A stretch of DNA of 24,814 nt, from IMG/VR virus record IMGVR_UViG_3300022882_000107, positions 1 through 24,814 of that record. One strand, 5' to 3'. Below the pieces are notes generated by a model that was given only the letters and a program-made list of their open reading frames with translations, had not been told where the DNA came from and searched no databases. Of this stretch, positions 3,008-13,719 are shown piece after piece. Every line of letters begins with the position of its first letter. Position 1 is the first letter of the stretch. The stretch is from a virus (Duplodnaviria; Caudoviricetes). The position numbers and the translations under genes were made by a program.

Positions 3008-3189
3008 GCTATTTCTTTCTCTCTGTTGATTTCTTCTTTTGTTTTAATTTGCATCAGTTGACCGTTGCCACTTTCGATTATTCCGGCACTTGCAAGGTGC
3101 TTTTTTATCTCTGTTACTCCGTCAAGGTTCCATACTTGATTAACTCGATCAAGTCCGCCCTGTCTGTCAATTAGTTCATTTAATGTCAT
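3004..3189 (-). CDS. Hypothetical protein
   Basis: 61 aa; AAGGCGG upstream; ATGA-coupled on both sides. Confidence 0.65.
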   Translation of the reverse strand: MTLNELIDRQGGLDRVNQVWNLDGVTEIKKHLASAGIIESGNGQLMQIKTKEEINREKEIA

Positions 3190-3326
3190 TTTACCGCCTT
3201 GTCCAGTAATTCAATTACTTTTTTGTCGTTGTCCTGGATATACGCCATAACCAATTTGTGATCTGTCATAACTGATATATCCAAACCTCTTTTTTCGCAC
3301 TCTTCCCTTATTTCGTAATAGTACAT
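3186..3326 (-). CDS. Hypothetical protein (46 aa)
   Basis: Not in track. MYYYEIREECEKRGLDIS...; AAGGAAG RBS; ATGA overlap with the next gene. Confidence 0.6.
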   Translation of the reverse strand: MYYYEIREECEKRGLDISVMTDHKLVMAYIQDNDKKVIELLDKAVK

Positions 3327-5841: not shown

Positions 5842-5895
5842 GTTGTAACCTTTTCTGTTGTGCTTCGGTCTCTATTGCCGTTGCTGTGTAGATAG

Positions 5896-5913
5896 TAGCA
5901 ATGTGCATGCCAA
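5896..5913 (-). promoter_or_regulatory. Sigma54 (RpoN) -24/-12 promoter 1
   Basis: Minus strand TTGGCATGCACATTGCTA = TGGCA-N6-TTGC (GG-N10-GC), pointing at the left operon. Confidence 0.75.
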
Positions 5914-5950
5914 CTATCCCAAAACACCCAAACTATTTTTATTTATTTAT

Positions 5951-5975
5951 TAAGTCGTTTATATCAAGCTCTTTA
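5951..5975. promoter_or_regulatory. IHF-like binding site
   Basis: TAAGTCGTTTATATCAAGCTCTTTA; each strand is 1 mismatch from WATCAANNNNTTR; AT-rich flank. Confidence 0.5.
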
Positions 5976-6031
5976 CAAAAGCATAATAATCTGATATGTT
6001 TCGCAATGTTACCAAATGTTTGCCGTATCCT

Positions 6032-6068
6032 TGTCATTTCTGATAATTGAGAATGTCATATCTGATAA
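6032..6068. promoter_or_regulatory. Tandem candidate upstream activator sites
   Basis: TGTCATTTCTGATAA (6032-6046) and TGTCATATCTGATAA (6054-6068), near-palindromic, 22 bp apart. Confidence 0.5.
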
Positions 6069-6155
6069 AGTATCATTATCTTGTCGTTATGTGATTATGT
6101 TGCTACTATCCTATTGTAAACCAGTGTTTTAAATGGGTTGACAATACTCTACGGG

Positions 6156-6256
6156 CTGTTAATAACCTGTTAATAACTTTTGCTTAATATCTTATAATCC
6201 TTTGACATACAACAACTTAGCCCCTGTTAATAACCTGTTAATAACCTGTTAATAAC
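6156..6256. repeat. Five copies of the 11-mer CTGTTAATAAC (DnaA-box-like)
   Basis: Copies at 6156, 6167, 6224, 6235, 6246; reverse complement contains TTATTAACA. Confidence 0.85.
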
Positions 6257-6517
6257 TCTAGTGTGGTAGATTAAAACAACCATTTAGCCCTGTGTTTCTA
6301 TGCGTACGTGTGGCCAAATCAAAAGCGTACGTGTTTAGGGAAAGGGATCATGCATTGATACATCATTATTTGGTTATTATGCACCTCTTGACTACCCAGG
6401 CGTGACAATAGCGCGACAATACAAGGCACACTAAACAGCCAAGGCACTGCACACAAGGCACATACAACTAATAGCCAGTCGGGTGGCCCACCCACTAGCA
6501 CACCAACACACCAAATT

Positions 6518-6584
6518 CATAGATATATAAAGCCAAAATCTTTTATCCAATCCATAGATATATAAAGCCAAAATCTTTTATCCA
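6518..6584. repeat. 32-bp tandem direct repeat
   Basis: CATAGATATATAAAGCCAAAATCTTTTATCCA at 6518-6549 and 6553-6584. Confidence 0.9.
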
Positions 6585-6662
6585 CCCCCTACCCTATATT
6601 TACGTTTATACATATATTGAATACCTCTGTGTCCAGTCTTGAGTTTTGCCCAAAAGTGCCCC

Positions 6663-6680
6663 TAGCAAGAATCGTGCCAA
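6663..6680 (-). promoter_or_regulatory. Sigma54 (RpoN) -24/-12 promoter 2
   Basis: Minus strand TTGGCACGATTCTTGCTA, an exact match to TGGCACG-N4-TTGC. Confidence 0.8.
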
Positions 6681-6851
6681 TGGATAAAATAATGATAAGA
6701 ATCTACAAGAAAAAGGTTAAGAATCAGATATTCAGAAAGTTGATATTGGGGTTAAATCGGTCTAAAATTTGGCAGTGAAAATGGGCGGTTATGAGTGAAG
6801 ACAAAAGGGTAGATTTACAAAAACTTAACAATTACCGAATTGTCGATACTC

Positions 6852-7072
6852 ATGGCGCCACACCCTTTTTTCGTAGTGTGTGGGAACAACGAGAAATCAC
6901 TAGTTGTGTGGGAGGCGTTTTATGGAGTAAATAAATAAAGTGTAAAAGTGGAAATATAGAGAAAAAAGACGTTTTTGGGGGGTTTGCAAAGTGTTTGTAG
7001 TTAATGGATTATAGCGACGGTATGGCGCCACACGCACACCCCCTCTCTAAGGAGAGATATAAATGTGTGGGA
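6852..7072. repeat. Cluster of inverted CCACAC/GTGTGG motifs
   Basis: ATGGCGCCACAC at 6852 and 7022; TGTGTGGGA at 6877, 6905 and 7064. Confidence 0.7.
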
Positions 7073-7187
7073 ATAGTTTTGTATTGTGAGACATAAATAA
7101 AAAGTGACCGCTACGCTTTTTTATTTAAGGCTTACACAATCCAAACCAAAACGTAGAAAAATTTTTAGTAGAGAATTGAAGAATAAA

Positions 7188-7250
7188 AAAAATAAAAAAA
7201 TAATTAAAAAAGTGCTTGACTTTTTTCAGTGATTTTGATATGCTTGTTTT
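7188..7250 (+). promoter_or_regulatory. Sigma70 promoter, copy A (63 bp identical to 8915-8977)
   Basis: A-tract UP element, TTGACT (7216), 17 bp, extended -10 TGnTATGCT (7239-7244). Confidence 0.8.
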
Positions 7251-7367
7251 AAATTAAGCGAGAACTCACATTCTTGATAATTAATGAAGCCTTCAGAAAA
7301 TGATGTTATGTGAGAGCTGGAAAGAGATTTCTGGTTGACATCGTTTTCTGGAGGTTTTTTTTTGGAG
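7251..7367 (+). ncRNA. Structured leader/attenuator RNA, copy A
   Basis: 21-bp stem 7287-7307/7337-7357, 7-nt bulge ATGTGAG complementary to upstream CTCACAT (7265-7271), apical stem with GAGA loop, T-run, then GGAG. Confidence 0.7.
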
Positions 7368-7374
7368 TAACAAA

Positions 7375-7596
7375 ATGACGGTACCTCAAACAGTATACAT
7401 GAGAAATCTTGCAGACAATCAGCTTTATGGTTACGCTATGGCAACGAAAGGAGTTCCTTTAGAAGAATTAATCGAGAGTATGAATTTGACTTCACAAGAA
7501 TGGCAAAAAATAAAAAGAACAACATGTTCATCAAGCGTAAAAGAACTTAATGTGGAAATTGAAAATTACTTTAAAAAGAAAGTCGCAAAAGAATGA
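7375..7596 (+). CDS. Hypothetical protein
   Basis: 73 aa; GGAG RBS directly after the leader T-run. Confidence 0.7.
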   Translation: MTVPQTVYMRNLADNQLYGYAMATKGVPLEELIESMNLTSQEWQKIKRTTCSSSVKELNVEIENYFKKKVAKE

Positions 7597-7823
7597 CAAG
7601 TGTAGAAGAAAAAATGGACAAAAGGTTTTTGAGAATTATTTTGAATTGTCAAAATGCTAGAAATAGATATCCAAATACTTATGAAGCTAAGTACAAAAAA
7701 CAGAGGGATAAGTATTCAAAAGAAATCATCGAAAACAATCTTATCGAGAAGTGTGGTGAAGAGGTGTATTTCGCAAGGCAGTTATGCATGGCCAATGACT
7801 TAGAATATAAACACAAGGAGTAA
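7593..7823 (+). CDS. Hypothetical protein
   Basis: 76 aa; ATGA overlap. Confidence 0.65.
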   Translation: MTSVEEKMDKRFLRIILNCQNARNRYPNTYEAKYKKQRDKYSKEIIENNLIEKCGEEVYFARQLCMANDLEYKHKE

Positions 7824-7828
7824 TAATT

Positions 7829-8224
7829 ATGAGTATAATTGATGACATGAAGAGGTTGGACACGATGGAAACAAGTGTGGCAAAGTTAGAATCTAGAATC
7901 AAAGAATTAGAACATGAGAATTATCTGAAAGAAATAAGACTCGTTAGACTTGAACGCTGGAAAAAGAATAACAGCAGGTCTCACAAGAAGAAAGTTTTGT
8001 TCACGCCTAAAGACTGGTGTCTGCATATTAACAATTCTAGTAGTGAAGATAAGCTTATGGATTTTTTGATTGAACAAGGAATCATTGAAAAGATTATGAG
8101 AGCTTGTCTCTGTATTGGCTATAAAACAACGTTGAAAGAATTTGAAGGAAATAACATAATGATTGCCGGAAAGTATTATGCAAGGTTCCCCGCATCGTTC
8201 TACGAAGGACTTGATTATGAATGA
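7829..8224 (+). CDS. Coiled-coil + putative winged-helix protein (antirepressor-like), paralog A
   Basis: AAGGAG RBS; shares LExWK, TPxDWC, GYKT and RFPASFYExLDY with 9114-9461; loosely resembles the ANT/KilAC pattern (inference). Confidence 0.6.
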   Translation: MSIIDDMKRLDTMETSVAKLESRIKELEHENYLKEIRLVRLERWKKNNSRSHKKKVLFTPKDWCLHINNSSSEDKLMDFLIEQGIIEKIMRACLCIGYKTTLKEFEGNNIMIAGKYYARFPASFYEGLDYE

Positions 8225-8705
8225 TTTTAACACAAACACAGAAAACAAAGATGAGTGGCTTACACCTCCATACATCATTGAAGCAATCGGACCATTTGAT
8301 TTGGATCCATGTGCGCCGATTGTCAGACCATGGTCGACAGCGACAAAACATTACACAATCAAGGATGATGGATTGAATAAAGATTGGAGTAATACCAGAG
8401 TTTGGTTAAACCCTCCTTACGGCAGACAAACATTTGAGTGGATAGAAAAACTTGCTGAACATCGCAAAGGAATAGCATTGATATTTGCTAGAACTGAAAC
8501 AAAAGGTTTTCATGCTCAAATCTGGGAAAAAGCAGATGCAGTTTTCTTTTTTAAGGGCAGATTGAAATTCTATCATGTTGATGGAACTCAAGGTGGATGT
8601 GCAAATGCTCCAAGTTGTTTGGTGTCCTATTCAAACTATGATACTTTTTGTATTAATGCAGCAATTAATGCAAAGCTTATAAAAGGCAGATTAATAATAC
8701 TTTAA
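8217..8705 (+). CDS. Phage DNA N6-adenine methyltransferase (Dam-like, PF05869 type)
   Basis: DEWLTPP, FDLDPCA, catalytic NPPY (WLNPPYG), ARTET, FxKGRLKF; ATG at 8217 with GAAGGA RBS. Confidence 0.92.
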   Translation: MNDFNTNTENKDEWLTPPYIIEAIGPFDLDPCAPIVRPWSTATKHYTIKDDGLNKDWSNTRVWLNPPYGRQTFEWIEKLAEHRKGIALIFARTETKGFHAQIWEKADAVFFFKGRLKFYHVDGTQGGCANAPSCLVSYSNYDTFCINAAINAKLIKGRLIIL

Positions 8706-8794
8706 TTAACGGTGCTCTTCTCTTAACCCAGAGCCCCCCGCGTTTCTCGGTGCAGGGAAAAATGACTATGACGAAAGGAAAATGAAATGAGCAA
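8704..8794 (+). repeat. About 90-bp intergenic repeat, copy A
   Basis: First 44 nt and last 32 nt identical to 9461-9550; includes RBS AAAGGA and ATGAGCAA. Confidence 0.9.
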
Positions 8795-8930
8795 GGGTTC
8801 ACGGAATCGGACAACCGACCGGCAAGCTTACGAAAATGCCGACTACTGGAAACATTTGCCGACCCCGTGCCCTGATTTTAAGGAAAAAGTTCGTAAAAAT
8901 ATAATCAAAGGAACAAAAATAAAAAAATAA
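8787..8930 (+). CDS. Small basic phage protein (47 aa)
   Basis: Not in track. MSKGSRNRTTDRQAYENADYWKHL...; same RBS and start as 9543. Confidence 0.55.
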   Translation: MSKGSRNRTTDRQAYENADYWKHLPTPCPDFKEKVRKNIIKGTKIKK

Positions 8931-8977
8931 TTAAAAAAGTGCTTGACTTTTTTCAGTGATTTTGATATGCTTGTTTT
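8915..8977 (+). promoter_or_regulatory. Sigma70 promoter, copy B
   Basis: TTGACT (8943), 17 bp, TATGCT (8966); identical to 7188-7250. Confidence 0.8.
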
Positions 8978-9105
8978 CAAATGAAAGTACTGTCTCAAAA
9001 CAAGTATGATTCAAATTAAATGAAGCCGTACAGTTTTAGCATGTTTTGAGAGTCTTTGTCGAAAGGTAAAGATTGTGCTAAGACTGTATGGCTTTTTTTT
9101 TGGAG
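8978..9105 (+). ncRNA. Structured leader/attenuator RNA, copy B
   Basis: 20-bp stem 9023-9042/9075-9094, bulge GTTTTGAG (TGTTTTGAGA complementary to TCTCAAAACA 8993-9002), 10-bp apical stem with GAAA loop, T9, GGAG. Confidence 0.72.
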
Positions 9106-9113
9106 TAAACGTT

Positions 9114-9461
9114 ATGAACGAGATTGAAGAATTGAAGGAATTAGTTGAGAAGCTAACATTAAGAATTGTTAAACTTGAGCTTTGGAAAAGAAAAAGTCGC
9201 CAAAAGACTCCAAAGAAAAAGGATTCATATACACCGTTTGATTGGTGCAAATATATTGGGAAGCCTGATGACGATGTAAATCTTGTAAAATATTTACTTA
9301 AACGAGGAATGATTGAATATGTTCTGGTTGATGGTATGATAGTAGGCTATAAAACATCGTCGGAAGAGTTTAAAGAAAATAACATGAAAGTTGCTGGAAT
9401 GTATTTTGTAAGGTTCCCAGCATCGTTCTACGAAAAACTTGATTATTACTGGAGAATTTGA
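9114..9461 (+). CDS. Coiled-coil + putative winged-helix protein (antirepressor-like), paralog B
   Basis: ATG at 9114 after GGAG (track start 9075 lies inside the RNA stem); paralog of 7829-8224. Confidence 0.65.
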   Translation: MNEIEELKELVEKLTLRIVKLELWKRKSRQKTPKKKDSYTPFDWCKYIGKPDDDVNLVKYLLKRGMIEYVLVDGMIVGYKTSSEEFKENNMKVAGMYFVRFPASFYEKLDYYWRI

Positions 9462-9550
9462 ATTAACGGTGCTCTTCTCTTAACCCAGAGCCCCCCGCGT
9501 TTCTTGTGCAGGAAAACGTGACTATGACGAAAGGAAAATGAAATGAGCAA
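9461..9550 (+). repeat. About 90-bp intergenic repeat, copy B
   Basis: See 8704-8794. Confidence 0.9.
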
Positions 9551-9749
9551 AATTACAGACATGACAGATGAACAATTGAAAGACCGTATTTTCGTATCAG
9601 GTTTACATCTGGGATATTTGAATAATAAGATTGGTATGGACAACTATCTTGGACTGCCAATTGATAAACAAGACCGTGAACACCTGAATGATGAACTATG
9701 TGTAACAGGTGCTCTTTATCACGAATACAAACAAAGAGGGATTGAATGA
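9543..9749 (+). CDS. Hypothetical protein
   Basis: 68 aa; AAAGGA RBS. Confidence 0.7.
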   Translation: MSKITDMTDEQLKDRIFVSGLHLGYLNNKIGMDNYLGLPIDKQDREHLNDELCVTGALYHEYKQRGIE

Positions 9750-9889
9750 AAACAAATGTGAAACTAAAATACAGACAATGTTGTTATTGCAATAGGATAG
9801 TTCCGTCAAGTTATAACTTTGTCGAACATATTAGAATGTGTAAGCAACAAAGTAAATACATAAAATGGCTTGATGGAGACAGAAGATGA
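9746..9889 (+). CDS. Small C2HC-type zinc finger protein (47 aa)
   Basis: Not in track. ...CCYCNRIVPSSYNFVEHIRMC...; ATGA overlaps at both ends. Confidence 0.6.
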   Translation: MKTNVKLKYRQCCYCNRIVPSSYNFVEHIRMCKQQSKYIKWLDGDRR

Positions 9890-10134
9890 AAACAGAAATC
9901 AAAGGGATTGTGCAGTCCGTAGAAACTATCTGCAACGACAAATATATAGTTATCGATGAAAACGGCTCAAATCGTTCTCTTACAATCGAACTTGATGTTA
10001 GTCAAGAGGACGATATTTTAAACAACTATAAAGTTGGTGATGAAATAACAATTATATTATCAGACAAGAAACTTTTGAAAGAAACAATAAATATTGGAAA
10101 TAACTATGAACAAGATAACAGTAGCAACTATTAA
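9886..10134 (+). CDS. Hypothetical protein (beta-rich, possibly OB-fold-like)
   Basis: 82 aa; IKGIVQSV...YKVGDEITI pattern; GGAG RBS. Confidence 0.6.
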   Translation: MKTEIKGIVQSVETICNDKYIVIDENGSNRSLTIELDVSQEDDILNNYKVGDEITIILSDKKLLKETINIGNNYEQDNSSNY

Positions 10135-10315
10135 TGGTACTCTTCACACTGTAGATATTAATGATATTAAATTATCACCCGCAGATAATAATAAATATAC
10201 TCGAGTAAAGTATTTTGATGTCGCATTTAGAGAAGGAAAAAACCAAGTTGTCGCCGCAAAAGAATATGACAGACTAGACAAATTGATAAAGGCAATCAAG
10301 AACAGCATAATCTAA
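10106..10315 (+). CDS. Hypothetical protein
   Basis: Track 10094-10315; ATG at 10106. Confidence 0.6.
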   Translation: MNKITVATINGTLHTVDINDIKLSPADNNKYTRVKYFDVAFREGKNQVVAAKEYDRLDKLIKAIKNSII

Positions 10316-10428
10316 CTTTTTATTTTAATTCTTATGCTCAATTTGATGAGATTTATGTTGGCAAAAACGATGAATAGCATAAAATATACCAAAAAGTGAA
10401 GAAAAATGAGAATAATCGAAAATAGTTC

Positions 10429-10457
10429 TTGCTTTTTTTGTCAAATTTTGGTATATG
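10429..10457 (+). promoter_or_regulatory. Putative sigma70 promoter upstream of packaging/structural genes
   Basis: TTGCTT, 17 bp T-rich spacer, TGgTATATG; resembles promoters A and B. Confidence 0.45.
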
Positions 10458-10533
10458 TATGAATGTCTTAAACGAAACTATGTAGAAAACTTAAAACAAA
10501 GAAGAAAATTATTATGGGTAACACAAACAGAAA

Positions 10534-10737
10534 ATGAAAACTCTTGGAGTGACAAAAAAAAAGGCAAAAAGTAGTAAGGCAAAAAGTAGTAAGGCAAAAA
10601 GTAGTAATACAAACAGAAGTGGTTCATTTACTAATGCTGGTGTGCAAAACACTCCAAAGCAAATTGATGCAGCAAGCCAAATACGTATAAAGGCAAGACG
10701 TAAACTTAAAGCTGACAAATTGAAGAAAAAGAAGTAA
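10534..10737 (+). CDS. Small very basic Lys-rich protein with KAKSS x3
   Basis: 67 aa, 2 acidic residues; exact 15-nt tandem AAGGCAAAAAGTAGT x3 at 10561-10605. Confidence 0.6.
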   Translation: MKTLGVTKKKAKSSKAKSSKAKSSNTNRSGSFTNAGVQNTPKQIDAASQIRIKARRKLKADKLKKKK

Positions 10738-10889
10738 CACTTTACGTCTGGCAGGGAAAGCTCAGGATAAGAAGCTAGCAGCAGCGAGGAAAAAGGGGAA
10801 AAACCAAAGGCTCCAGAAGGCTACGAATATTCTTCAGCTACGAATTGATTTACTAGGTTATACCGTTAGTTGGTTAGTTATAGTTACGT

Positions 10890-10931
10890 TCTCTGCCCTA
10901 GACCTCAAATCGTGAGAGGGGCAGAGTTTTT
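10890..10931 (+). terminator. Intrinsic terminator-like hairpin before packaging genes
   Basis: CTCTGCCCT...GGGGCAGAG followed by TTTTT; inner CTCA-AATCG-TGAG stem. Confidence 0.6.
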
Positions 10932-10936
10932 AAACG

Positions 10937-10976
10937 AAGGATTGAATGAACTTGGAAAGGATTGAATGAACTTGGA
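10937..10976 (+). repeat. Exact 20-bp tandem duplication of RBS and start codon
   Basis: AAGGATTGAATGAACTTGGA x2. Confidence 0.9.
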
Positions 10977-11181
10977 AAACATTGAAAAGGTTGATTATTT
11001 GCTTGAAGATTGGAACAAAATAAAAGTTTTGTTTGGTTTTAAAGAAGACTTTAAAAGTATTTCTTTTGATTTTGGATCTAGTACTATCAATTTTTCTAAG
11101 CATGATACTTTAACTAATTGCATTTTTAAAGCATTGACAGTTCGCAAGATTGAAATTGAGGAGGAACTTACGAAGTTATGA
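10966..11181 (+). CDS. Hypothetical protein
   Basis: 71 aa; AAGGA RBS. Confidence 0.65.
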   Translation: MNLENIEKVDYLLEDWNKIKVLFGFKEDFKSISFDFGSSTINFSKHDTLTNCIFKALTVRKIEIEEELTKL

Positions 11182-11327
11182 GTGAAACAATAATATATGA
11201 ACCAGATTGCGGAATTAGAAAATACGAAGAAATAGAGAGAGAACTAATCAAAAACTTGAATAGACTTAGCAAAAGACGTTTGAATTATCAGTCAAGTTTT
11301 CTTCAAGCATCTAAATCATGGTCGTAA
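11178..11327 (+). CDS. Hypothetical protein (49 aa)
   Basis: Not in track. MSETIIYEPDCGIRKYEEIE...; ATGA overlap. Confidence 0.5.
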   Translation: MSETIIYEPDCGIRKYEEIERELIKNLNRLSKRRLNYQSSFLQASKSWS

Positions 11328-11345
11328 AACGAGGAGAAATGCAGA

Positions 11346-11876
11346 ATGGCAGTGACATCTGTTGAGACAAAGAAGCTTTTGAAAGAGCATGGTTTGTGGC
11401 AGGATTTTTGTGATGAACGAGCAGACATGAGAACCGATGAAGCATCTGCAAAGGATATCGAAACTTTACTGTCATCTTATGTTGCAAAATGCAAAGGGCC
11501 AGAGAGTAAGAGCGTAAAAAAGATTGTAGTGCCTCCAGAAGTACTTGAGTTTTTACGAGGAAAGAAGGCTACTCCAGAGGAAATCTCTAGGTGGGTTTTA
11601 GAGAGTTTGATGTTTAGGCACACTGCTGTTGATTTGAAGAAAGCACCGGATGCCATAGCCTTAAAGTATTATGTTGATTGCAGAGAATCTCAAGCATTTT
11701 ACATGGATTTTAAGAAGAACTTTGTAAACAAGAGTATTGGCCAAGGTCAAAAAGAGGACGAAAACAATTTTGATGGAAAAGACATTTGTGATTTGATAGA
11801 TGTTCTTGTTGAAATGAACAAGGTTGCGAAAATGGAGGAAAAGAAAATACTAAGGGAAATAGATGATGGAGTTTAA
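11346..11876 (+). CDS. Putative terminase small subunit
   Basis: 176 aa helical protein overlapping the start of the large terminase; GAGGAG RBS; positional call. Confidence 0.55.
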   Translation: MAVTSVETKKLLKEHGLWQDFCDERADMRTDEASAKDIETLLSSYVAKCKGPESKSVKKIVVPPEVLEFLRGKKATPEEISRWVLESLMFRHTAVDLKKAPDAIALKYYVDCRESQAFYMDFKKNFVNKSIGQGQKEDENNFDGKDICDLIDVLVEMNKVAKMEEKKILREIDDGV

Positions 11877-13719
11877 ATATGACCAGTATGTTCCTAAAAC
11901 TTTATTTGCAAATTTAATCTTTCGTAAAATGATACTTGAGAAATGCGGTAAAGAATTAAGGTTCAGAGCTTTCATACAAAAAATCATCAGAGAGGATTAT
12001 CTATTTTTCACAAACACTTTTGCTTGGGCCGAAAATCCTAGAAGTGTTGTTACCAGAATGCCGTTCATTGTTTATGACTACCAAGATGAATTTTTTAAAA
12101 ATGAATGGAATAGGATATTATCAAAGGTGGATCCAGGTGATGCAACGATTGAAAAGACTAGAGATATGGGAGCATCAGTATGTATGATGACTTTGATATA
12201 TGCTCCTTGGTTGTTGCTACCAAAGGAATCGCCATTTAGAGCTGGAGTTGTTTCGAGAAAGGAACCGTTGGTTGATGGAGCTGCCGGAAGTTTGTTTGAA
12301 AAACTTGATTATCTGCACGACAACATTCCAGGGTGGATGAAGCCATCAAAAGTTACAAGAGTGGTTTTAGCCTTTGTGAATGACGAAACAAAATCGACTA
12401 TCAACGGTGAATCAACTAACAAAGATTTCTTTAGAGGGCCAAGACTGGATGTGTTTATTGGTGATGAATGGGCGGCGATTAACGACAATGATGCAGTTAG
12501 AGGTGATGGTGCTACCGGTGAGACCGCATACATTAGATATTTTGTATCAACTCACAAAGGTCCACTAACACAATTTAACATCAAGTGTAAGACTGCTGCA
12601 TTTCTTTATCAGTGGCATTGGAGCTTGCACGAGGAAAAGAACAAGGGCTTGTACACGTCAAAGATGGATATTAATGGTGATTATGTTCTTAAAATCTTAG
12701 ATACAAGCTACAGTGCAGTAGTAACCGTACTTAGGAGAGGCGTAAGGGGGTCAAAAAAGGTTAAGTTCCCCCAAGACTATCCTTGGATACTAGATGGAAA
12801 GAAAAGGTCTCCTTGGTATGATACAGCAGCTTCTAAGATGGCAGACGATAAAATGGTTGCTCAAGAGCTTGATATGGATGCAAGTGGTTCAGATCAGTTG
12901 TTCTTCTCAAAGGCAGTGATTGAAAAGAAAATCATGCTTGAGGGAATGTTACCACTATATCAGGGTGTTATCAAGGATAGCGTTATACAGGAAAATGAGA
13001 ATGGAGAGTTGAGTTGCTGGTTTAACAATATCAACGAAGCTGGAAAGATAGACAAAGACTGGCTGTATGCTAGAAGATTTATTGTGAGTTCAGATGTATC
13101 GTTTGGTACAGGAGCTAGTAATTCGGTGGCAGTTGTTTATGATGCGGTGAGGAAAGAAAAGGTTGCAAGGTGGCAGTCACCTAACTATGACCCAAAGGAT
13201 TTTGCAAGAATATCAGTGATGTTGGCGAAGATGTTTAATGATGCGTTCCTAATCTGGGATGCTACTGGTGTGGTTGGAAAGACATTTTCAAATGAGATTG
13301 AAGCTTTGCAGTACAGTAACTTGTATTACAGGAACGATACTGATGCTGGATTTTATTTTAACGATGATGCCAGAAGTGCATTATTGATGACATATAGGTA
13401 TTCGTTGGGGCAAGACAAGATTACAAACAGGAGTATTGACGGATTAAACGAGTGCATGGAATTTATTATTGAGCCAGGACCAAAGATTGTTCATAGAGCG
13501 ACTAAATTAATTAGCAATCCTACTGGTGCGAGAAATGCTCATGGTGATGAAGTTATGGCAGATGCAATGGTTGCTCATGTTTTAGAAAGTGAACCAATTT
13601 ATGTTGATACGAAAACTAAACCGATTATTCAAGCTAATTCAGTGGCAGCACGAATGAGAGAATATAACAAAGAGCAACTTGGAAATGACAGGGATGCTTA
13701 TATTATGGGAGTTAGATGA
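11863..13719 (+). CDS. terL: Terminase large subunit
   Basis: YDYQ adenine motif, Walker A EKTRDMGAS, Walker B VFIGDE, VST coupling motif, RNase H-fold nuclease SSDVSFGTGAS and HGDEVMADA. Confidence 0.93.
   Translation: MMEFKYDQYVPKTLFANLIFRKMILEKCGKELRFRAFIQKIIREDYLFFTNTFAWAENPRSVVTRMPFIVYDYQDEFFKNEWNRILSKVDPGDATIEKTRDMGASVCMMTLIYAPWLLLPKESPFRAGVVSRKEPLVDGAAGSLFEKLDYLHDNIPGWMKPSKVTRVVLAFVNDETKSTINGESTNKDFFRGPRLDVFIGDEWAAINDNDAVRGDGATGETAYIRYFVSTHKGPLTQFNIKCKTAAFLYQWHWSLHEEKNKGLYTSKMDINGDYVLKILDTSYSAVVTVLRRGVRGSKKVKFPQDYPWILDGKKRSPWYDTAASKMADDKMVAQELDMDASGSDQLFFSKAVIEKKIMLEGMLPLYQGVIKDSVIQENENGELSCWFNNINEAGKIDKDWLYARRFIVSSDVSFGTGASNSVAVVYDAVRKEKVARWQSPNYDPKDFARISVMLAKMFNDAFLIWDATGVVGKTFSNEIEALQYSNLYYRNDTDAGFYFNDDARSALLMTYRYSLGQDKITNRSIDGLNECMEFIIEPGPKIVHRATKLISNPTGARNAHGDEVMADAMVAHVLESEPIYVDTKTKPIIQANSVAARMREYNKEQLGNDRDAYIMGVR

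Follow-up and report, generated by a model that had tools for sequence, protein, structure and literature searches.

Two promoter-proximal leader units with internally complementary bulged hairpins in a temperate phage: a candidate RNA gate on transcription termination

Anatomy of the two leader units

The stretch of DNA considered here, which we call the window, is a 24.8-kb fragment of a viral contig (24,814 nucleotides (nt) of IMG/VR record IMGVR_UViG_3300022882_000107; estimated completeness 28%), and our subject is a pair of leader units that stand before genes of its rightward operon. Both units have the same order of parts, namely a promoter, a weak 5' hairpin, a 31-base-pair (bp) bulged hairpin, a T9 run, GGAG and ATG, and in both a segment of the leader is exactly complementary to the bulge of the hairpin downstream, a pairing that may act as a gate on termination. 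An IMG/VR contig of 50,930 nt (G001; estimated completeness 80%) belongs to the same phage, with 99.988% identity and 3 mismatches across 24,814 nt. The parts of the units and the genes around them, among which are open reading frames (ORFs) with lengths given in codons or amino acids (aa), are as follows.

7185-7253, plus strand: promoter repeat, copy 1, with an A-rich upstream tract, -35 element TTGACT (7216-7221) and TG-extended -10 element TATGCT (7239-7244)
7252-7282, plus strand: 5' leader hairpin 1, -4.5 kcal/mol, z score -2.6, 5 of 200 shuffles as good
7265-7270, plus strand: 6-nt loop of 5' hairpin 1, CUCACA
7284-7313, plus strand: mini-ORF 1, 9 codons, MKPSENDVM and stop, its ATG at the hairpin base and its stop within bulge 1
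7286-7358, plus strand: bulged hairpin 1, lower stem of 23 bp (7286-7308 with 7336-7358)
7309-7335, plus strand: upper part of bulged hairpin 1, with 7-nt bulge 7309-7315, 8-bp apical stem 7316-7323 with 7328-7335, and GAGA loop 7324-7327
7355-7363, 7364-7367 and 7375, plus strand: T9 run, GGAG and ATG of copy 1
8912-8980, plus strand: promoter repeat, copy 2, with an A-rich upstream tract, -35 element 8943-8948 and -10 element 8966-8971
8982-9013, plus strand: 5' leader hairpin 2, -5.4 kcal/mol, z score -2.0, 10 of 200 shuffles as good
8994-8999, plus strand: 6-nt loop of 5' hairpin 2, CUCAAA
9020-9049, plus strand: mini-ORF 2, 9 codons, MKPYSFSMF and stop, same layout, its stop within bulge 2
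9022-9095, plus strand: bulged hairpin 2, lower stem of 21 bp (9022-9042 with 9075-9095)
9043-9074, plus strand: upper part of bulged hairpin 2, with 8-nt bulge 9043-9050, 10-bp apical stem 9051-9060 with 9065-9074, and GAAA loop 9061-9064
9093-9101, 9102-9105 and 9114, plus strand: T9 run, GGAG and ATG of copy 2
7375-7596, plus strand: ORF of 73 codons, first gene behind leader 1 (ATG 7375)
7829-8224, plus strand: ORF of 131 aa, function unassigned, third gene behind leader 1
8217-8705, rightward operon: Dam methylase
9114-9461, plus strand: ORF of 115 aa, first gene behind leader 2 (ATG 9114)
11863-13719, rightward operon: terminase

The promoters lie in a direct repeat of 69 nt (7185-7253 and 8912-8980, 97% identical), and repeat search and comparison confirm that its 63-bp cores, 7188-7250 and 8915-8977, are identical, as the original prediction had it. 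TTGACT-17-TATGCT with a preceding TG occurs in both copies (7216-7244 and 8943-8971), the transcription starts would fall near 7251 and 8978, and from about +3 onward the copies diverge. A consensus promoter scan as a whole gave a chance-level number of sites (75 against 62.9 expected), and the promoter call is therefore made not on that scan but on the A-rich upstream tract and on the hexamers, both of which are retained in three relatives while the spacer varies (CAGTGA, AGCTGT, TAGGGT). A scan with the exact promoter sequence matched the same phage only, and a degenerate pattern returned 30 loci, most of which are strong promoters of a generic kind in other phages, with the bulged hairpin confined to this clade. 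A third promoter-like site, CTTGCTTTTTTTGTCAAATTTTGGTATATGT, is kept in all three relatives (window 10428-10456, L007 ~2385-2415, G002 1521-1546); behind it lies a plain leader without a hairpin.

Each bulged hairpin has 31 pairs (8-9 GC, 15 AU and 7-8 GU), with folding energies of -36.3 kcal/mol (z score -7.6) in copy 1 and -37.3 kcal/mol (z score -8.8) in copy 2 and with 0 of 200 shuffles as good in either case, so that folding and shuffles bear out the earlier view of two real units of about 120 nt that reach the same fold from differing sequence; the stem sizes then given, 20-21 bp and 9-10 bp, hold for copy 2 (21 + 10) and are slightly off for copy 1 (23 + 8). Each promoter is thus followed by a predicted terminator (-36 to -37 kcal/mol, U9) that ends 105-118 nt past the inferred start.

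Complementarity between leader and bulge

In copy 1 the leader segment L1, CTCACAT (CUCACAU, 7265-7271), is exactly complementary over 7 nt to the bulge segment B1, ATGTGAG (AUGUGAG, 7308-7314), and in copy 2 the segment L2, TCTCAAAACA (RNA UCUCAAAACA, 8993-9002), is exactly complementary over 10 nt to B2, TGTTTTGAGA (RNA UGUUUUGAGA, 9042-9051); in either copy the L segment is located at the 6-nt loop of the weak 5' hairpin. The exact match claimed for each copy is therefore present, at 7 and 10 nt. When the leaders were dinucleotide-shuffled (20000 trials) and compared with a bulge window of 19-20 nt, a complementary run of at least the observed length arose in 249 of the 20000 shuffles for copy 1 and in 116 for copy 2, which on the assumption of independent copies gives a joint probability of ~7e-5. 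The bulges have ATGTTnTGnGAG in common, and the two "codes" therefore differ at few positions, two of them compensated in the leader: with the copies aligned in the shared register, two leader:bulge pairs have changed in both partners (C-G to A-U and U-A to A-U). The earlier claim that stems and long-range pairing both covary between the copies is supported, as regards the pairing, by these two compensated pairs. The units precede paralogous genes, the 131-aa ORF at 7829-8224 and the 115-aa ORF at 9114-9461, which are 45% identical (E 1e-31), and fold and pairing have therefore survived long divergence. The paralogues match no family in Pfam, PHROGs or Atlas; a likeness to antirepressor C-terminal domains found no support.

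Calculated duplex energies favour the cognate combinations (-12.6 and -15.5 kcal/mol) over the cross pairs (-6.2 and -8.0 kcal/mol). As far as such predicted energies go, the units could serve as two orthogonal switches or two immunity specificities, with the CUCA:UGAG core shared between them. Folding of the nascent RNA at the stage at which it reaches from the start site to the bulge or apical hairpin, with the 3' strand of the stem still to be made, gives the leader:bulge (L:B) helix as the minimum-energy fold in both copies, pairing 7265-7271 with 7308-7314 in copy 1 (-8.7 kcal/mol) and 8993/8994-9002 with 9041/9042-9050/9051 in copy 2 (-11.6 kcal/mol). A gap of 0-1 nt separates this helix from the apical hairpin, and the loop that the helix closes contains the 5' strand of the stem; the helix shares only the top 1-2 pairs with the terminator stem and is therefore not a classical competing antiterminator.

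Further targets of the bulges, as would be expected of an RNA that acts like c4, did not emerge. Near the leaders, complements of B1 and B2 occur at L1 and L2 only, none lies at a ribosome site, and motif counts over the genome are those of chance. The two additional sites that had been named, TCTCACA at 7979-7985 and CTCAAACA at 7385-7392, belong to motifs found at chance level in the 50.9-kb genome, with 4 plus-strand occurrences against 2.6 expected and 2 occurrences against 0.83 expected, respectively, and c4-like action on further targets is not supported.

Genomic setting, relatives and similar designs in other phages

The leftward operon of the phage codes for Erf, a YqaJ exonuclease, SSB, an ERCC4 nuclease, a primase-helicase and an integrase (Pfam and PHROGs), a gene set from which it follows that the phage is temperate, and the rightward operon starts at the leader units and holds small ORFs without known function, the Dam methylase, the terminase and structural genes. 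Between the divergent operons lies ~1.3 kb of repeat-rich non-coding DNA (5842-7184) with CTGTTAATAAC iterons at 6156-6276, a 35-nt tandem repeat at 6514-6583 and several GTGTG/CACAC hairpin-like motifs, which is possibly an origin or operator region. A second direct repeat of ~94 nt (8701-8794 and 9458-9550, 93-98% identical) spans in each copy the distance from a stop codon (Dam, 8705; 115-aa ORF, 9461) to the start of a small ORF (8787; 9543), including the ribosome site and first codons of that ORF; it is not significantly structured (z scores +1.2 and +0.3) and is probably a module-boundary or recombination sequence. An apparent joint from 9500 back to 8750 and loose ends at 8794 in the contigs of DNA runs are accounted for by this repeat and do not reflect a deletion variant. 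Farther down the rightward operon, ahead of the terminase region, there are three tandem 15-nt units (AAGGCAAAAAGTAGT) at 10561-10620 inside the ORF 10534-10737, a terminator-like hairpin with T5 at 10891-10931 and a 20-nt tandem duplication at 10940-10979 across the start of the ORF 10966-11181. The hairpin has a counterpart with a different, compensated stem in L007 (~3148-3190), and the CUCAAA and GUGAGAG in its upper part are probably a coincidence. The DNA sequencing runs that contain at least half of the words of the stretch (X1-X7) are all labelled salt lake metagenome.

The clade is narrow. TerL identity falls from 92% and 88% to 39%, and synteny is therefore unable to supply further leaders. 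The relative G002 (TerL 98%) has a single unit, in which the upstream context of promoter copy 1 is joined to leader 2 (L008 805-975), and is without the 1727 nt between the promoter repeats; an A to G change at the position of 9051, beside the bulge, keeps the pair as G-U. The 1727-nt cassette, which comprises leader 1, two small ORFs, the 131-aa ORF, Dam and a 47-aa ORF, would thus appear to be present or absent by recombination at the promoter repeat. Anchored patterns (AATGAAGCC...T8GGAG or ATGAAGCC...T8GGAG) were scanned through viral, metagenome and genome collections, and of the 193 metagenome and genome matches that were folded 5 were true, all of them from the same two phages; one further candidate, L009, is a chance match within a gene. 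GenBank phages yielded no relative of positions 6000-12000 apart from a weak match to the Dam gene, and the assembled contigs of 4 DNA runs yielded no leader variants.

The arrangement as such, a leader complement to an unpaired part of the terminator hairpin that adjoins the first gene, is found well outside this clade. A sample of viral contigs selected by T8GGAGTAA (120 of ~470 loci) shows a terminator-like hairpin at 89 of 110 distinct sites among the matches listed, to which the counts in this paragraph refer, and in 14 rows, where ~6 or fewer would be expected, the leader complements an unpaired part of the hairpin with a shuffle p of at most 0.07. These rows represent 11 distinct designs, one of which is the clade of the window, and the complementary part may be a 3'-side bulge of an apical hairpin (L292, 9 nt; L302, 7 nt), a junction linker or an apical 7-nt loop. 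The junction type has three-way hairpins with covarying partners (UUGGUGG/CCACCAA, UUGCAGG/CCUGCAA and UUGGCGG/CCGCCAA); in L329, L342 and L338 such three-way-junction terminator leaders stand behind strong promoters, and the linker CCNNCAA covaries with an upstream UUGNNGG.

The apical-loop type was followed with the pattern GTGCTNNNNCCAC-N13-17-T7 (120 of ~290 loci, L358-L477). In the resulting GTG-CUNNNNC-CAC family a perfect 7-nt complement of the loop lies 43-52 nt upstream in 48 of the 96 distinct loci among the matches listed, as against a mean of 0.58 and a maximum of 4 when the loop assignments are permuted, and the same loci display 9 loop codes; 14 near-identical scaffolds vary in few columns, and the paired loop columns (25 with 81, 27 with 79) belong to these. 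The family has two hairpins, the loop of hairpin 1, G-NNNN-AG, being the exact complement of the terminator loop (examples L397 228-334, L402 302-409 and L360 234-334), and it occurs in phages with Firmicutes-type and with Bacteroidota-type promoters. By their N-termini, the genes behind these kissing-loop elements resemble replication-initiator and Rha-type genes. The examples are not found as leaders in GenBank phages, where L397 matched in its coding part only and L329 had no match, and five example loci of the wider class, the junction type included, have no Rfam match at E <= 1. In both window leaders a stretch of 7 nt or more complements an unpaired part of the terminator hairpin adjoining the first gene, and like the kissing-loop leader terminators they have an upstream segment that matches 7-10 nt of that part and covaries with it. 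Unlike the GTG-CUNNNNC-CAC family, in which the partner is an apical 7-nt loop, they use a 5'-side bulge below a GNRA-capped hairpin, and among 43 matches in the window to the frame GTGCTNNNNCCAC with up to 2 mismatches none falls in 7185-7375 or 8912-9115; the window leaders are an analogue or a separate bulge-type lineage and not a sequence-level member of the kissing-loop family.

A possible gate on termination and its alternatives

Several phage systems resemble the units in part. An Rfam 15 covariance scan of the whole window at E <= 10 gave five unrelated matches, none of them in 7180-9140, and the isolated leaders gave 19 and 30 weak, generic hairpin-like matches at the same threshold, none to a C4-type family or IsrK, with best scores of 21.1 bits (gathering threshold 80) and 24.7 bits (gathering threshold 59). 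The absence of any Rfam match, C4 included, thus stands for the window and for the leaders alone. The Rfam families C4, c4-2 and c4-a1b1 represent the P1/P7 c4 antisense RNA with its a1b1 and a2b2 sites, in which changes in short unpaired segments set immunity specificity. In the window leaders as in c4, a structured leader RNA has short unpaired stretches matched by sites farther upstream on the same transcript; unlike c4, the window leaders have no counterpart of the a2b2 site at the ribosome site of the next gene, on which c4 acts. In P4 immunity, as described in PMC4825925, an internal single-stranded segment of an untranslated, promoter-proximal leader is complementary to an upstream segment of that transcript, and transcription ends prematurely before the operon genes. 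The window leaders resemble P4 CI (seqB/seqA) in having an internal segment that matches an upstream site, over 7 and 10 nt, but they share no sequence or covariance-model similarity with it, they have no downstream complement (seqC) such as that with which the processed P4 RNA pairs, and the part that would pair is the very bulge of their terminator hairpin. Termination in P4 reportedly does not take place at an intrinsic terminator containing seqB.

In Gifsy-1, the account of IsrK in PMC4825925 has a promoter-proximal intrinsic terminator give rise to a short RNA and a read-through mRNA, the short one pairing with the long one. The window has a predicted promoter-proximal terminator ahead of genes as well, whereas the target of IsrK is translation of the downstream ORF, to which it has long complementarity in place of a loop-bulge match. 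At lambda PR'-tR' a long late operon starts with a strong promoter and, within ~100-200 nt downstream of it, an intrinsic terminator, and the closely spaced promoter and predicted terminator of the window are similarly placed; the Q system, however, needs the Q protein, a Q-binding element and a sigma-dependent pause, and leader-terminator complementarity has no role in it. Among 51 ORFs (30 in the window and 21 further ones in the 50.9-kb contig) there is no match to an antiterminator (Q) family in Pfam or PHROGs, most of the ORFs matching nothing. HK022 putL and putR are described in a passage of PMC9378689, a source that also mentions lambda PR', 6S RNA and tR', as two similar two-hairpin RNAs that act on termination downstream of two promoters. 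The window likewise has two fold-alike two-hairpin RNAs behind two promoters in one phage, but put is ~70 nt long, is not a terminator and binds polymerase, whereas the second hairpin in the window is a predicted terminator with U9. Dual-hexaloop ANTAR targets (PMC8934654) were considered as well; the 6-nt loops of the window probably do not fit the hexaloop consensus. Three further comparators were set aside: canT of Tn916, a 452-nt region unlike the window element, conAn (PMC8191782) and the long-stem terminators that resist antitermination (PMC10325885). The units are not members of the C4, P4 CI, IsrK or put families and do not appear to be Q-type units, and pairing of a leader with its terminator as a class was found neither in Rfam 15, against which the window and five example loci from other phages were scanned, nor in searches of open-access papers and bioRxiv. 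By analogy they may be regarded as a variant of RNA-based phage leader immunity or attenuation, with P4 CI, c4 and IsrK as the nearest analogues. What remains of the original proposal of an undescribed or distant antisense/attenuator family is the lack of an Rfam match, the compensated pairing and the recurrence of the design in unrelated phages, while the c4-like further targets are not supported.

We tentatively put forward, as a serious possibility, that the leader:bulge pairing is a functional gate on termination. A sigma-70-type promoter would produce a leader of ~110-125 nt that folds into the 5' hairpin and the 31-bp bulged hairpin with U9, the latter serving as an intrinsic terminator immediately ahead of the ribosome site of the first gene. 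The L:B helix would form first in the nascent RNA and hinder closure of the terminator: once it is closed, the 5' strand of the stem would be enclosed in a loop of ~37 nt, and the lower stem, with its 21-23 bp or about two helical turns, could not wind to its base unless the L:B helix opened, because the linker of 14-19 nt is too short to wrap the helix and the 3' end of the RNA is held in polymerase, so that closure of the base pairs relevant to termination would be delayed. A free leader loop would thus favour read-through, whereas with the loop occupied or sequestered termination would be favoured and a small RNA of ~112 or ~123 nt set free. The loop might be taken up by the 5' hairpin, by a protein or, in trans, by the bulge of a leader RNA that has already terminated; in the last case terminated RNA would act on nascent leaders of the same code, a code-specific negative feedback resembling immunity of the P4 CI kind. 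On both the direction of the switch and the action in trans, which are model-based, our confidence is lower than for the gate itself.

A number of observations weigh against such a gate. The shuffle probabilities (~0.012 and ~0.006) are modest and were calculated post hoc, for a pairing already noticed. At ~-36 kcal/mol the terminator greatly exceeds the L:B helix in stability and may, without a helper, simply win over it, and the winding block is a topological inference. Only three distinct leader sequences exist across the viral, metagenome and genome collections, and covariation evidence for the element is for that reason limited to the two paralogues. The relative G003 (TerL 92%) keeps the promoter and runs through a 35-nt leader straight into GGAG-ATG with the hairpin absent, and the gate is therefore dispensable within the clade. 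No RNA run is listed among the sequencing runs that contain the stretch, and promoter, start site and termination are predictions. Of six other bulge, junction or loop designs, four include the L:B helix in their nascent fold, and in the remaining two the nascent minimum-energy fold is without it; in the kissing-loop family, moreover, the matched heights of the two hairpins look built for coexistence, a feature that a tertiary contact in the finished RNA would explain no less well than a kinetic block.

The same body of evidence has to be read in the light of other explanations. The units could be plain strong leader terminators that a phage protein overcomes, in the manner of lambda PR'-tR' and Q or of an N-type system, the promoter being constitutive, the short RNA a by-product and the L:B match incidental or structural. 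A strong consensus-like promoter with a terminator ~110 nt downstream does head a long rightward operon into terminase and structural genes, the hairpin with a T run at 10891-10931 is a further terminator-like element inside that operon, and most early ORFs are without known function and could hide an antiterminator; yet 0 of the 51 ORFs match such a family, the initially transcribed region, where a Q-type pause would be sited, differs between the copies from about +3 onward, G003 expresses that operon although it has no such hairpin, and the compensated L:B pairing with its covarying recurrence in other phages would be left unexplained. We consider this reading unlikely. It is rather improbable that the units are primarily small-RNA genes, whose ~112- and ~123-nt products act in trans through a seed in the bulge or the 5' loop, the internal match masking or folding the seed as a1b1 does upstream of c4. 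Each unit is self-contained in having its own promoter and terminator, and leader-terminated phage RNAs that act in trans are known, for example IsrK, with P4 CI also described in the passages concerned (PMC4825925); against this, no complement of bulge or loop lies at a ribosome site, motif counts over the genome are at chance level, and read-through must occur, since the ribosome site of the next gene begins one base past the U-run and there is no other promoter.

Two further readings were weighed. In the case of a leader peptide, a ribosome on the 9-codon mini-ORF would travel along the 5' strand of the stem, stop in the bulge and so block the terminator, and the layout lends itself to this in that an ATG at the base of the hairpin is followed in both copies, exactly 27 nt on, by a TGA within the bulge, in a frame kept despite a 2-nt indel between the stems, which would also account for the conserved AATGAAGCC and TGAG. 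Neither ATG (mini-ORFs 7284-7313 and 9020-9049) is preceded by a Shine-Dalgarno sequence, however, whereas the phage genes have GGAG-type sites; the chance of coincidence, estimated roughly, is 0.03-0.17, the other bulge and junction designs have no consistent mini-ORF, and we find this reading very improbable. That there is no regulation at all, the units being duplicated module-boundary terminators or insulators in recombining cassettes with an L:B match due to chance and shared ancestry, would agree with the promoter repeat being a recombination joint, at which G002 fuses the upstream context of copy 1 to leader 2 without the 1727 nt, with the absence of the hairpin from G003 and with inheritance of the CUCA:UGAG core, which is hence not independent evidence. 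It is highly improbable in view of the joint shuffle probability of ~7e-5 for independent copies, the two compensated positions and the recurrence of the design in unrelated phages far above control; a terminator right behind its own promoter, besides, insulates nothing.

If the leader:bulge pairing does gate termination, the units would represent a compact, protein-free and re-addressable transcription switch of ~110 nt with its specificity held in 7-10 nt, and would extend by one mechanism the small group of immunity and antitermination systems of phages that are based on RNA (P4 CI, c4, IsrK and put). The two copies, with their compensated differences, constitute a natural compensatory-mutant pair, that is, two codes in one genome. 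We regard as doubtful, though worth stating, the wider proposition that phages make broad use of an undescribed RNA gate in which a short code-like helix between leader and terminator patch closes a loop through which the stem cannot wind, in place of a competition for nucleotides of the stem, with the terminated RNAs acting in trans on nascent leaders of like code to confer an immunity made of RNA alone and specific to the code, and to time early, replication or late operons. The kissing-loop loci, with 48 perfect complements in 96 distinct loci and 9 codes among the matches listed, suggest that many uncultured phages may control replication, antirepressor or late genes through gates of this kind.

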